DNA of 63,733 nucleotides, filler included, from Sphingomonadaceae bacterium (GTDB taxonomy: Bacteria; Chloroflexota; UBA6077): NCBI GenBank assembly GCA_050261575.1. It is 8 parts of 8 records of this genome, joined end to end, with 100 filler letters (N's around TTAATTAATTAA, not from the genome) between each part and the next. Parts side by side here need not be neighbours in the genome. Positions count along the whole stretch, not along the records: positions 25,007 to 36,985 come from JBLNDL010000059.1; positions 37,086 to 47,585 come from JBLNDL010000061.1; 6 more parts are not named here. One strand, 5' to 3'. The position numbers are program-made. Shown piece after piece: positions 34,201-37,200 of this stretch. Positions within the stretch are counted from its first letter, which is position 1. Each line of letters opens with the position of its first letter.

Positions 34201-37200
34201 GGAGTGGGCGTGCTGGTTGGCACCGGTGTGGAGGTGAGAAGGGTCCCGCCGCCGGACCCCTCCGTGAGGAAGAGCGGCGAGGAGGTCAGGCTCACTGTCA
34301 CCCTGCCGCCGGAGGGGTTGAGGATGCGCGTAGCCTGGGTGAGCCCGAAGTCCCACTTCCGCTCCACAAGCGGGGACGTCGCCGGCAACTGCACGGTGGC
34401 AGTGGCGGACTCGCTGTTGCCGGAGGTCTCGGCCCAGAGGGCGTAGCTCTTGCGGCCGTCCGCTCCGAAGAAGACGAAGCCCCGCACCCCGGCCGGTAGC
34501 TCCAGTGATGCCGTGGCGGCCGCGTCGTAGCGCTGGCCACGCAGGAAGGCGCCGTACGTCTTGAAGGCTGCGGCCGACGGCTTCAGCCTCGCGCTGTCCA
34601 CAGACTGGCCTCGCAGGTCGTAGTAGAGCCCCATGTGGGCGTAGGCGCTGCCCGCGGAGCCATCGGCTTCCGTATCGGCAAGCTGGAACCAGTCGACCTG
34701 CGACACGCCTCCTGCCATGGCCAGGATCGGCAGCTTCAGCATGTAGTTGCGATGCAGATCCGATCCGCCGACCAAGCCCCCTGCCGGCTTCGAGGCGACG
34801 CCGCTCTCCGTGGCGAGCCAGATCTTCCTCGGGTAGGTCGAGCCGTCGTAGCCCCACCGCTCCAACTGAATCCGCATGGTGCTCTGCCTGGCCAGGAAGC
34901 TCGAGGCCATCGCGTCGGAATCGGTCCCGCGCAGCCACGTGTTTTTGGCCTGGTCGTAGGTGGCGTAGTGTGGGTAGTGGTGGTAGCTCACGGCGTCGAA
35001 CCAGGCGCCGCCCCGAGCTGGGTAGGCGGCGGTGACCGATCCGTCACTCGGGTTGTCGGTGTAACGCAGCACGGCGTCGAGGAAGCTCTCGTAACCGATG
35101 CCGCCGATCGCCACGAAGCAGTTGGGGTCTACAGACTTGGCCACCTCGTACGTGACGCGCAGCAGCCGGATGTAGGCGAAGATCGAGTCGCGCCAGTTGG
35201 GCAGGTCGGCTGCTTGCGGCGGCGAACTCCACCAGGCGCCCTGTGTCAGGCTCCAGTTGCCGGTGCGGTCCGGCTCGTTCCACACCTCCCAGATCTTCAC
35301 CTGCCCCTTATACCTGGATACGACCTGATGGACGTAGACCGCCCAGTAGTTGCTGGGGTTGACCACGCCGGGGCCGGACCAGATCGGCTGATAGAGGTTC
35401 CTGGGGGAGTACTGGTCGAGATTGCCGCCGTTAGGGGAATTGGAGTGAGCGGCGGTGGGGCCGATCAGCAGGCCCGTCATGTTGGTCAAACCGTTGGCCT
35501 GGTAGGCCGCCATGTCGCCGTTGGCGAATTCGATATCGTAACCCCACCGGTCGAAGTGGTACTCCGGCAGCTTGATCCGCACGGTGTCGGCACCGGCCCT
35601 GGCAGCGAGGGTGGAGAGATCCTTGTTGTTCCAGCCGGAGGGATTGCCGAAGTTGACACCGTAGCCGAAGCCGTCGGGCACGGGGGGAACCGAGGCGTTG
35701 GCACCGATGCGGCTCGCATCGGCAGCGACCTGCGCGCCCACTCCGCCGCCCGATACGGCGAACAGAAGCAGCACTGCGAGCAGGCCGAGGAAGACGAACG
35801 GGAGCTTACGCATGTCTCCTCCTTCGTATAGAGAGGCCGGGCGCAGATCGCGCGCTGCGGGCGCGGGAAACGACAAGGTCCAGTATGAGGCAGTATATTG
35901 TGGCACTTAGATGATGCAAATAGCCAAGATGTACCAGAGCAGGCGGACAGGCGCACGAGATCCGTGGCGACGGTTTGCGCCGGGGCGGTGCGGACGGGGG
36001 CTCCCTCACCCCGCAACGCGAGCGAGTGCAGGGCTGCGCCTCCCCCAGCTTGACATCCTCCAGAGGAGCGCCATAGGATGCCTCTAGGCTCCATCCATCA
36101 GTCGATCGGGTCTAAGCAGGTATCTCTAGATAGAGTACACGTTTCCCGCCAGAGAAGTTGACATGGTCTAGAGATACCTGCCTGGAACCGCAGAATCGTT
36201 GCAGTGAGGAGAAGGAACGTGGATCTCGAGAAAGTCCTGAAGCTGGTCGAATTCGACACCCCCACCGTGGCCAACGGCCTCGAGTTGCTGGGGTACAGGG
36301 ATCCCACCGTCGGCTACACGGGTCCGGACGTGCGGGCACTCATGCCGGACATGGGCGCGAGGATCGGGGTGGCGGTCACGGCCCGCCTCGACACCACCAC
36401 CGCCGGCACCGACAAGCCGAAGAGCCTCTTCCACGACTGGCTGCGTCTGATCCAGGCTGCATCCCGCGGCCCCAACGGTGAGCGGATCCCGGTCTTCGCC
36501 GTCATGGAGTCGGTGGGTCCCAAACCCCGCTACACCGTGACCATCGGCGACCACATGGCCACGCTGATGAAGCTGGCCGGCGCCGTGGCCTTCATCACCA
36601 ACGGCAGCATCCGAGACCTGGAGGGGGTGCGGGGGGTGCCGCTCCCCTGCTGGGCCACCGGGCTCTCCCCGATGCACGGCCAACTGCGATGGCTTGACGT
36701 CAACAGCCCCGTGGTGATCGACGGCATGACCGTGAACCCGGGCGACTTCGTCCACGCCGACGTGAACGGTGCCCTGGTGATCCCGCCCGACGTGGCCGAC
36801 AAGCTGTACGACAAGGCCGTCGAGGTGCAGGAGATGGAGAGAATCAGGATGTCCAGGATACTGCAGCCCGGCCAAACGCTGGATAGCTACCTGGACTCCC
36901 TGAAGAAGTAGGACACCGTCGACGCGCCGGGCGCGGGGGGCGCCCGCGCCGCCCCCCCCGCAAAGCCCCCCCCCCCCAACCCGCGNNNNNNNNNNNNNNN
37001 NNNNNNNNNNNNNNNNNNNNNNNNNNNNNTTAATTAATTAANNNNNNNNNNNNNNNNNNNNNNNNNNNNNNNNNNNNNNNNNNNNCGCACCGCGGGGGTG
37101 GGGCGCGCGATGCCCCTCGATTCGTCACGGGGGGCGGTTCGATGGCGGAAGTGAAGGACGTGCTGCAGTCGCTTCTCGAGAACGTTGAGAAGGTGATGGT

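Follow-up and report, generated by a model that had tools for sequence, protein, structure and literature searches.

Why should a 74-nt hairpin repeat, present in well over a hundred copies in the genome of a soil Chloroflexota bacterium, so often lie exactly at the ends of genes? The window analysed is a stretch of 63,733 nucleotides made of eight contigs joined by N runs, and the copy that raises the question occupies positions 36112..36185 (G000:C59:11106-11179). Several questions should be addressed in assessing such a repeat. What is the unit that moved? What determines the sites that it occupies? Are the copies at gene ends retained for some purpose? What enzyme moved them?

The family is very probably a non-autonomous 68-nt DNA transposon (MITE) that was moved by a DDE transposase of IS630/Tc1-mariner type, inserted at the TA of CTAG and has decayed neutrally since the transposase was lost. 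A first-pass annotation had reached the same core reading, an IS630/Tc1-type MITE inserted into the TA of CTAG, with a private expansion and no parent. Copies nested within copies, orthologous gene ends, and DDE_3 elements of relatives flanked by CTA..TAG now add weight to it.

The element and the flagged copy

Throughout the family the unit consists of a 68-nt core, AGCAGG..CCTGCT, between C-TA and TA-G. The flagged 74-nt unit (36112..36185) reads outer C, TA, 68-nt core, TG and outer G. Its core, AGCAGG..CCTGCC (36115..36182), matches the 68 positions of the family profile and is taken as the transposed unit, conservation of the flanks ending at the C and the G. The left copy of the duplicated target, TA, lies at 36113..36114 and the right copy at 36183..36184, where an A to G decay has left TG; both are read from the sequence and from the dinucleotides that flank copies across the family. 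No strand is assigned to these four features. Terminal inverted repeats (TIRs) of 15 nt, each with an internal CTAG, are placed at 36115..36129 on the plus strand and 36168..36182 on the minus strand by sequence reading, the fold and an analysis of the pairs. The top nhmmer match is the flagged unit itself, with 65.9 bits for a single query and 71.1 bits for the family profile.

The core is non-coding, with stops in all frames, and carries its TIRs of 15-18 nt at the very ends of a short element, around an asymmetric interior of 38 nt. The consensus folds into a hairpin of -32.7 kcal/mol (RNA parameters), a figure identical to that given before.

No gene stop falls on the flagged copy, which occupies a divergent intergenic region. 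To the left is a gene of 929 amino acids with a carbohydrate-binding CBM_4_9 domain (33117..35906, minus strand), the start of which faces the element. To the right is an RraA-like/aldolase gene (36204..36911, plus strand), and since its longest ORF begins 19 nt past the unit this copy belongs to a 5′ region, not to a gene end. A promoter-like consensus match, TTGACA-18-TAGGAT, is present upstream of the copy at 36050..36079 on the plus strand (a pattern match only); if this candidate is real the copy would lie in the 5′ UTR of the RraA-like gene. A promoter role for the -35-like TTGACA inside the element was considered and dropped, because no position in the element is more diverged than the second T of this motif (46%). 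There are no terminator-like sites at positions 35850-36300 of the window. An Rfam scan of the locus gave nothing above threshold, the best result being a 30-bit hairpin match to mir-5045, for which the gathering score is 80.

Copy number and distribution

Iterated nhmmer searches of the whole 3.72-Mb assembly gave 366 matches on both strands, which reduce to 184 loci covering 12,024 bp. Of these loci, 150 score at least 40 bits and 162 are full length, compared with 186 loci and 147 full-length copies in the earlier count. For the 123 gapless 74-mers, a set that leaves out 39 full copies with indels, the mean pairwise identity is 73.8% and the divergence from consensus 16.0%; the previous values were 118 exact copies and 74%. 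The closest pair of copies is still 8% apart. The family of some 184 tiny hairpin transposons in this soil Chloroflexota is old and no longer active.

Of 40 relatives one has the element, as do two of 400 genomes sampled from the phylum, although in one of the two the match is partial and only 28 nt long; this agrees with an expansion private to this lineage. Orientation relative to genes is random, also as first described, the inner core being directed toward the gene in 21 versus 22 cases. The gene context is tandem for 98 copies, divergent for 22 and convergent for 18, against 629, 260 and 173 free CTAG sites, so that the deficit in divergent regions is only mild. Genes were called with our own simple codon-usage caller, which gave 3018 genes and is not a validated annotation. 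Seventeen copies fall inside ORFs of this caller, 12 in the first 13% of the ORF, four at the 3′ end and one at 25%. The first 12 are an artefact of choosing the longest start.

The target site

Conservation of the flanks falls to background beyond the outer C and G, both of which are kept in 135 of the 162 full copies. The junctions read CTA followed by AGC in 51 copies and GCT followed by TAG in 52. The left flanking dinucleotide is TA in 80 of 162 copies, the remainder being mostly CA or TG. Decay has left TA unaltered on both flanks of only 37 of the 162, and the duplication is therefore read partly through that decay.

Some copies have inserted into other copies. A complete copy is nested in the left internal CTAG of another at C6:49493-49631 and at C76:21736-21874, with flanks TG..TA and TA..CA, respectively, and a third is nested in a right internal CTAG (C73:9745-9881). 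Two pairs abut and share a single TA (C90:32885-33020 and C97:4983-5120). Three lines, the flank consensus, these nested and abutting copies, and orthologues in four genomes of the same family, show that the TA inside CTAG is duplicated. Where two aligned empty sites had been available, there are now also three nested insertions, two abutting pairs and the ends of six genes compared with orthologues in up to five relatives. One arrangement counts against the simple scheme: the copy at C42:85379-85500 breaks off at its internal CTAG, with the remainder missing. A test for duplicated targets other than TA gave 15 pairs of identical non-TA left and right dinucleotides where 10.0 were expected, a marginal excess (p 0.05).

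The family occupies at least 184 places, approximately 12.6% (roughly one-eighth) of the CTAG sites usable to it, meaning those outside coding interiors. This is a high saturation for a bacterial MITE.

Coincidence with stop codons

A gene stop lies exactly on the terminal trinucleotide of 54 of the 162 full copies (TAA 27, TGA 16, TAG 11), and of the 66 stops within 14 nt of a copy end it is again 54 that are so placed. The first-pass annotation had 58 such cases among 147 copies, and the coincidence is reproduced here with an independent gene caller. What would be expected by chance? CTAG is four-fold depleted in this genome. TAG is the commonest stop (47-48% of stops), and stop codons account for 308 (27.4%) of the 1125 free CTAG sites that lie outside coding interiors. 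With about a quarter of the usable sites being stops, an element that seeks CTAG lands on stops; any TAG stop that follows a C makes up a CTAG site, which is why one copy in three abuts a gene. The coincidence is thus mostly a matter of target choice, which the original caveat had allowed at least in part. The observed share, 33%, differs from the 27.4% null with a one-sided p of 0.056; when copies inside ORFs of the caller are removed it is 37% (54 of 145), with p 0.006.

Insertion at a C-TAG stop would leave C-TA followed by the first base of the element, A, so that the stop would become TAA in the same codon and the protein would be unchanged. Later A-to-G transitions would turn TAA into TGA or TAG, which are still stops. 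The earlier statement that the ends of the element supply stop codons is correct as to the coincidence but overstates the supply; the T and A come from the gene's own former stop and only the third base is the element's, and a share of 33-37% is near the 27% null. A CTAG-seeking element would in this manner rebuild the stops on which it lands and leave the protein untouched, and it offers a clean, well-bounded example of a transposon target preference mimicking a functional tie to gene ends.

Comparison of six genes having their stop on an element junction with 18 orthologues in five relatives (G001-G005) reveals that the protein ends at the same residue in all 18. The stop of the orthologue is TAG in 11 of the 18 and an exact C-TAG in six, representing three genes, and the element is absent from the orthologous gene ends of other genera. 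The groEL gene, for example, ends in TAC TAG in three of four family relatives and in TAC TAA plus the element here. Pfam profiles for ThiS, the RNase J C-terminal domain, formate-THF ligase and the Succ_DH flavoprotein C-terminal domain extend to the last residue. RNase J ends in ATG-TAG in three of four orthologues and ATG-TAA in the fourth, compared with ATC-TGA here, which indicates that the C of CTAG arose first in this lineage. The gene for the succinate dehydrogenase flavoprotein has TGA in all three orthologues and here also, and its copy has TG on both sides; this site departs from the simple scheme and would fit either a back-mutation or a non-canonical target.

Neutral decay or retained hairpins

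Might the copies at stops nevertheless have been kept? They could be domesticated 3′-UTR hairpins, retained because their 18-bp stem, once in the mRNA, would terminate or shield the transcript, whether as a terminator-like structure, as a barrier to exonucleases or as an RNase III site in the manner of Correia elements. We consider this improbable. The copies concerned would be the approximately 54 that sit on stops, including those of groEL, RNase J, formate-THF ligase and a succinate dehydrogenase subunit, and were they kept as 3′-end hairpins, which appears unlikely, a single burst of the MITE would have remodelled the 3′ ends of about 2% of genes.

The consensus fold (-32.7 kcal/mol) is compatible with such a role. 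At all 18 stem pairs Watson-Crick pairing is close to that expected of independent arms (within 5 points, with observed below expected at five pairs), sample values of observed versus expected being 84 vs 84, 50 vs 51 and 51 vs 56. Double changes slightly exceed expectation at three of the 18 pairs; at the other 15 they equal it or fall short of it. Changes on both sides of the stem had been put forward as evidence, but they are no more frequent than independent decay predicts and do not constitute compensatory evolution. The two arms decay independently, without covariation.

Mismatches in the stem are more favourable to a role in RNA. In the 43 gapless stop copies, read in the mRNA sense, G.U outnumbers A.C by 89 to 43 (p 8e-5), or by 56 to 33 (p 0.019) without the three stop-codon pairs. 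The latter figures hint at some RNA-level constraint in stop-carrying copies, with the caveat that the test is post hoc; in 43 non-stop copies of tandem context the numbers are 58 G.U and 68 A.C. Similarly, A>G changes exceed T>C in the stem, 22% versus 13% (p 8e-4), and not significantly in the loop, 17% versus 14%, but the difference between stem and loop is not itself significant (z 1.74, p 0.08) and stems from two or three TpA positions. There is also the slight excess at stops over the CTAG null. Against this, stop-carrying copies are not significantly less diverged than others (14.7% versus 16.8%, p 0.08) and 22 full copies are located in divergent promoter regions. With its flanks unconserved, the element is not followed by a T-run, and the copy in the window has no terminator-like site. 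An intrinsic terminator combines a GC-rich stem with a T-run; here the stem is AT-rich (consensus 44.6% GC).

The composition of the copies is in line with neutral decay of the MITE. Substitutions from the consensus comprise A>G 487, T>C 399, C>T 113 and G>A 92; per site, AT-to-GC transitions exceed GC-to-AT 3.5-fold and TpA is lost fast. The GC content is 44.6% in the consensus, 52.4% on average in the copies and 65.4% in the genome. On the basis of independent decay of the arms and the strong AT to GC substitution the copies look like neutral fossils, and we infer that they have no present function. More than 120 near-independent neutral sequences in a genome of 65% GC bear on how high GC content is maintained.

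The source of the transposase

An IS630/Tc1-mariner-type DDE transposase would have acted in trans by binding the 15-18-nt TIRs of the 68-nt element, with integration at the TA of the palindrome CTAG and duplication of that TA. The element would have spread in this way to at least 184 places in the Chloroflexota genome, after which the source of transposase was lost and neutral decay followed.

DDE_3 (PF13358) has no match in the assembly, which agrees with the absence of a parent first noted there, and wider scans revealed no parent with these ends. A tblastn search of the assembly with transposases of relatives detects only a 97-codon N-terminal HTH fragment (C1:5668-5958), the first 60 residues of which match HTH_23 at 23.2 bits, just below the cut-off of 24.6 bits. 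Since the assembly is a MAG of 103 contigs, a repeated element could be missing from it. Among 185,579 species genomes, exact scans gave no parent, only a single copy in a Chloroflexi MAG. In these scans a 24-mer of the element ends has no match, an 18-mer of the element end finds the Chloroflexi copy and one Vibrio sequence, taken as a chance match and not as a true copy, and paired 12-mers in GTDB species genomes find the same Chloroflexi copy. The 18-mer has no match in JGI metagenome contigs. In G001-G004 the counts for a 17-mer with up to three mismatches equal those of a reversed-pattern control, apart from the G001 copy; of the other matches, that in G003 is weak (16 bits with nhmmer) and that in G002 is an unrelated longer repeat.

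Thirty DDE_3/IS630 loci of relatives, one of which (L035) is from an unpublished genome (G037), show no likeness to the TIRs of the element. TIRs were recovered for six of the 30 (seven candidate pairs) and are unrelated to those of the MITE, save for CAGGT near the end of L026. Five loci with full-length DDE_3 elements in relatives have CTA..TAG flanks (L015, L023, L026, L034 and L039). The earlier IS630/Tc1 assignment is thereby supported, although it still rests on the target, the duplication and the TIRs, neither a cognate transposase nor a matching TIR having been found; we infer a transposase of the IS630/Tc1-mariner family.

A DDE parent not having been found, and the element being essentially one long hairpin, a REP/BIME or IS200/IS605 (PATE) palindrome might be envisaged, mobilised as single-stranded hairpin DNA by a Y1/HUH transposase rather than by a DDE enzyme. 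Such an origin is very improbable. IS200/IS605 and REP elements are not known to integrate with end-to-end TIRs and a direct TA duplication, whereas here the inverted repeats run to the very ends and TA is directly duplicated in a palindromic target. Y1_Tnp (PF01797), sought as a sign of a REP/BIME system with its RAYT, gives no match in the assembly, while control genomes do match. At 68 nt, with an asymmetric interior of 38 nt and a TA duplication, the element is also longer than REPs, which measure 20-40 bp in the extract of PMC3733652. That a DDE family other than IS630 but with a CTAG-like target, for example the IS5 group, produced the MITE is barely credible: one DDE_Tnp_1 (IS4/IS5-type) transposase is encoded at G000:C6:17932-18624, but around it there is no match to the MITE ends with up to four mismatches except one at chance level and no long inverted repeat, a 4-bp duplication predicts direct CTAR..CTAR where the flanks are inverted CTAA..TTAG with only the 2-bp TA direct, and the nested copies agree with a 2-bp TA duplication.

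Comparison with known systems

The family belongs to an already known kind, the IS630-type MITE, and leaves MITE biology as known unchanged. A preference of IS630 for CTAG was reportedly the subject of a 1991 paper by Tenzen and Ohtsubo, to judge from its title. This CTAG context is shared by the element and also by the DDE_3 elements of relatives with their CTA..TAG flanks. A TA target with a 2-bp duplication is common to the element, IS630 and ISY100, and IS630-family elements in general insert at TA and duplicate it, according to the extract of PMC2170065. IS630 and ISY100 differ in being autonomous and about 1.1-1.4 kb in length, and the TIR sequences of the relatives are unlike those of this element.

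RUP of the pneumococcus, attributed to IS630-Spn1, is likewise short, non-coding, bounded by TIRs, inserted at TA and present in some 100-plus intergenic copies, and for both the mover is believed to be an IS630-family transposase acting in trans (extracts of PMC2229807 and PMC3049150). RUP as described in these extracts is 107 bp and its TIRs resemble those of the resident IS630-Spn1; the present element has 68 nt, a wider target in CTAG, no cognate IS found and old copies (74% pairwise identity). In Streptococcus pneumoniae the interspersed repeat BOX provides the stop codon of a neighbouring gene 36 times, with no evidence of truncated proteins in the extract of PMC3049150. BOX is modular (boxA, B, C) and CTAG targeting is not known for it, whereas here the overlap follows simply from the mechanics of insertion, the stop codon being itself the target.

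TA duplication is also a property of the Correia/NEMIS elements of Neisseria. These are hairpin-forming MITEs with TIRs, and their transcripts are RNase III substrates (PMC2229807, in extract). Correia elements are 107-155 bp, with IHF and promoter motifs and with functional effects that have been demonstrated. QMITE2 of Coxiella burnetii is a MITE found at a gene's 3′ end, where it influences the point at which the reading frame stops; in the extract of PMC5896051 the insertion adds 33 residues, where the protein end here is unchanged in 18 of 18 orthologues. A limited literature search found no direct description of this element or of CTAG-targeting MITEs at stop codons, and novelty is not claimed.

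Occurrence in soil metagenomes

The stretch is present in 10 soil DNA runs from five studies, with no RNA run among the holders listed. Contigs of four soil runs were compared over 19 kb with five copies, with the caveat that assembled contigs drop rare variants. One of them, 30 kb in length, matches this 19-kb stretch with 32 differences and could be its source. No clean loss of any of the five was seen in these contigs, which therefore provide no population-level empty site. Joints in the soil contigs run from one copy of the repeat to another, without any clean excision of a copy; a 74-nt skip at L064:3707-3782 falls in coding sequence that has no copy.

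The MITE family in the assembly

The MITE family is real, well-defined and extinct. Its unit is a 68-nt hairpin element, or 74 nt once the C-TA and TA-G flanks are counted. An nhmmer search of the assembly under study (G000; 3.72 Mb in 103 contigs, 65.4% GC) with one copy as query gave 173 matches, and four more rounds led to convergence at 366, which represent both strands of 184 loci, amount to 12,024 bp and place a copy on 63 of the 103 contigs. The family profile has 68 positions; 162 loci are full-length, covering it from position 5 or earlier to position 64 or later, and 150 loci score at least 40 bits. 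When 173 oriented copies are aligned conservation is 60-90% in the unit, about 90% at each of the outer C and outer G, and 20-40% directly beyond them. The 123 gapless 74-mers show a mean pairwise identity of 73.8% and diverge from the consensus by 16.0%. Our counts of loci, full-length copies and gapless 74-mers, and the identity, reproduce the family figures of the first-pass annotation. The most similar pair of copies is still 8% apart, and pairwise distance amounts to 0.82 of the summed distance from the consensus. Such a near-star phylogeny, as drawn from the sequences, points to an old burst without recent activity.

Insertion site and target duplication

Insertion into the TA of CTAG had been proposed, and the flanks, the nested or abutting copies and the orthologous empty sites all agree with it. 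The left flank is CTA|AGC in 51 of the 162 full copies, the right flank GCT|TAG in 52; the outer C and outer G are both present in 135, and TA is unchanged on both sides in 37. The chief flank variants (CCA, CTG, CAG and TGG) are transitions of TA. Identical non-TA left/right pairs number 15 against 10.0 expected (p 0.05), so that the two sides are nearly independent, and this indicates that the variants come from decay once inserted, not from a variety of targets.

Two internal CTAGs in the MITE serve as built-in empty sites. On contigs C6 (49493-49631) and C76 (21736-21874) a complete 68-nt copy sits within the T-A of the host copy's left internal CTAG, and the host continues exactly past the second TA. 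The same nesting occurs at the right internal CTAG on C73 (9745-9881), where the host remainder has diverged, and on C42 (85379-85500) a copy is cut at this right-hand CTAG with the rest of the host copy missing. On C90 and on C97 two adjoining copies have one TA in common.

Just two empty sites had been aligned before, a concern now met by six G000 genes with a stop on a MITE junction, compared with orthologues in five relatives (G001-G005). By Pfam name these are chaperonin Cpn60, RNase J, sugar transferase, formate-THF ligase, succinate dehydrogenase/fumarate reductase flavoprotein and ABC permease. The stop aligns with the G000 stop residue in 18 of 18 orthologues, a count that leaves out a nineteenth, L096, which ends at a contig edge. 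Their stops are TAG in 11, TAA in two and TGA in five, with exact C-TAG in six, spread over three genes. In groEL, TAC TAG is present in three of the four genomes of the same family; G000 has TAC TAA, then the MITE, then TA-G. A 2-bp duplication model gives back the relatives' sequence exactly; inserting a 74-nt unit without duplication would cost the G000 protein its final residue. The RNase J gene of three relatives out of four finishes with ATG-TAG, that of the fourth with ATG-TAA and that of G000 with ATC-TGA; since the relatives have no C before the stop, the C must have arisen before insertion in the G000 line. The flavoprotein gene ends with TGA in three of three relatives and in G000, with TG on both sides of its copy. 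This copy, L075 (G000:C58:34422-34488), lies 3′ of the gene and also has its last 12-14 nt tandemly duplicated; these features fit non-canonical insertion or later slippage.

By target and duplication, both read from sequence, the MITE is of IS630 type. A CTAG preference of IS630 was reportedly described by Tenzen and Ohtsubo in 1991. TA insertion with TA duplication is given for IS630-family elements in PMC2170065.

Stop codons at the MITE ends

Our codon-usage caller predicts 3018 genes (85% coding). A gene stop lies exactly on the terminal trinucleotide of 54 of the 162 full copies (58 in the earlier count), involving 21 left and 33 right ends; TAA accounts for 27, TGA for 16 and TAG for 11, and only 12 other gene stops fall within 14 nt of copy ends. 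Insertion at a C-TAG stop puts the MITE's A after C-TA and so creates TAA without shifting the stop position. T and A of the junction stop belong to the gene itself, with TGA and TAG produced by subsequent A-to-G changes. The coincidence reported previously stands, but not the claim that the ends supply the whole stop, T and A being native. The next in-frame stop, 18 nt inside the MITE, is used as an end by no called gene, and this fits a junction stop kept by selection.

Does the coincidence demand anything beyond the choice of target? The caveat that target choice partly explains it is borne out, as 308 of the 1125 free CTAG sites outside coding interiors (27.4%) hold the TAG of a stop codon; the stop-codon share for bare TA is 12.6%. 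CTAG is four-fold under-represented in G000, where base composition predicts 11,910 sites and 3033 are observed. Stop usage in G000 is unusual: TAG, as a rule the least frequent stop in bacteria, is here the commonest (1447 of 3018, 47-48% at every score or confidence threshold), followed by TGA (41%) and TAA (11%). The base before TAG stops is G in 57% and C in 23%. Against the 27.4% null, the stop share of copies is 33% (p 0.056), or 37% without copies called inside ORFs (p 0.006). The excess is modest at most, and weaker selection against 3′-end insertions would explain it. The association with stops follows for the most part from CTAG targeting in a TAG-heavy genome. Occupancy of usable CTAG sites is 12.6% (162 of 1287), and context differs little between copies (98 tandem, 22 divergent, 18 convergent) and free CTAG (629, 260 and 173, respectively).

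Twelve of the 17 copies called inside ORFs are start-extension artefacts. At four others the ORF runs into the first 50-60 nt of the MITE and stops inside (G000:C22:11294-11361, C40:3165-3233, C88:14708-14775 and C92:48272-48339), possibly gaining C-terminal extensions encoded by the element. Published repeats offer parallels: among bacterial MITEs linked to IS630 the classic case is the pneumococcal RUP (PMC2229807, PMC3049150), BOX encodes the stop of a neighbouring gene without truncation in 36 genes (PMC3049150) and a Coxiella MITE is reported to alter a C-terminus (PMC5896051). A limited literature search found no published description of this MITE, or of CTAG-targeting MITEs on stops.

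Hairpin and sequence decay

The consensus folds with -32.7 kcal/mol as RNA and -15.8 as DNA. Stem changes on both sides had been presented as structural evidence. The Watson-Crick share at all 18 stem pairs is approximately that of independent arms, and at 15 of the 18 double changes do not exceed chance expectation. The both-side changes, no more than independent arms give, are therefore no evidence of structure.

In the 123 gapless copies divergence is 27% at TpA, 18% at other A/T and 9% at G/C sites. The substitutions comprise 487 A>G, 399 T>C, 113 C>T and 92 G>A, that is 886 AT-to-GC versus 205 GC-to-AT transitions, and GC content is 44.6% in the consensus and on average 52.4% in the copies. 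Judged from these substitutions, the decay is what would be seen in an AT-rich newcomer whose composition moves toward that of the host, and the family can be used as a neutral record of GC-ward fixation bias.

Stem mismatches in the 43 gapless stop-carrying copies, in mRNA sense, are 89 G.U versus 43 A.C, or 56 versus 33 minus the stop-codon pairs (p 0.019). The loop of these copies is free of such a bias, and among tandem-context copies that do not lie on stops, 43 in number, no G.U bias is seen either. Stem and loop do not differ significantly (p 0.08), and the signal comes from two or three TpA positions. The G.U excess, which runs counter to neutral decay, is a weak, post-hoc hint.

Source of transposition and distribution

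The IS630-family transposase domain DDE_3 (PF13358) was found in 31 of 41 genomes searched (40 relatives and G000, the count taking in the unpublished G037), with no match in G000. With relatives' ORFs as tblastn queries the sole match in G000 is a 97-codon N-terminal helix-turn-helix fragment (C1:5668-5958, minus strand), 35-45% identical over 54-90 residues to relatives' IS630-family transposases; the HTH_23 score of residues 1-60 is 23.2 bits, under the 24.6-bit cut-off. The fragment has neither a DDE part nor a MITE end nearby and may be what is left of an IS630 element since lost. The first-pass annotation was thus right that the assembly holds no parent transposase. Y1_Tnp is absent from the assembly, and the ends of the single IS4/IS5-type transposase do not match the MITE. 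None of 30 DDE_3 loci in relatives has a likeness to the MITE ends. Complete elements with CTA..TAG flanks occur at five of them, so CTAG targeting is normal for the IS630-family elements of this clade.

G002 holds another, distinct repeat of roughly 146 nt (L045:1495-1670, contig C243) that starts C-TA-AGCAGGTG and ends TGCT-TA-G, with first bases and CTAG-type flanks as in the MITE. G002 yields 27 matches to it, and the GC-rich 80 nt in its interior also turn up in G001 (seven matches), G003 (19) and G000 (two).

The expansion, previously judged private to this lineage, remains so. A 74-mer search of 40 relatives gave one locus, in G001 only; a 400-genome phylum sample gave the same locus and a 28-nt partial match in another genome (G178), and among 185,579 species genomes scanned for exact matches nothing turned up beyond that one locus (Chloroflexi bacterium UBA6077). 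The G001 copy has perfect 17-nt repeats and a diverged interior, and its neighbours share no synteny with any G000 copy, indicating a family present in two genera with a burst only in G000. A 10-kb test stretch of G000 is present in ten soil DNA runs, with no RNA run on record; contigs assembled from four soil runs, over 19 kb with five copies, show no clean copy absence.

The copy in the window

The window is not one continuous DNA: contigs C54, C55, C59, C61, C64, C68, C83 and C89 are separated by N runs at 14614-14713, 24907-25006, 36986-37085, 47586-47685, 51078-51177, 56674-56773 and 60608-60707. It contains one MITE copy only, at 36112-36185 (C59 11106-11179), which consists of C, TA, a 68-nt core from AGCAGGTATCTCTAG to CTAGAGATACCTGCC, TG and G. 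No stop codon lies on this copy. It is flanked by the starts of a 929-aa gene (CBM_4_9 domain, minus strand) and an RraA-like gene (plus strand) and is therefore divergent intergenic. Just 5′ of the copy a pattern match identifies a promoter-like TTGACA-18-TAGGAT (10/12) at 36050-36079 (plus strand). If this match is real, the transcript of the RraA-like gene (36204-36911) would include the copy as part of its 5′ UTR.
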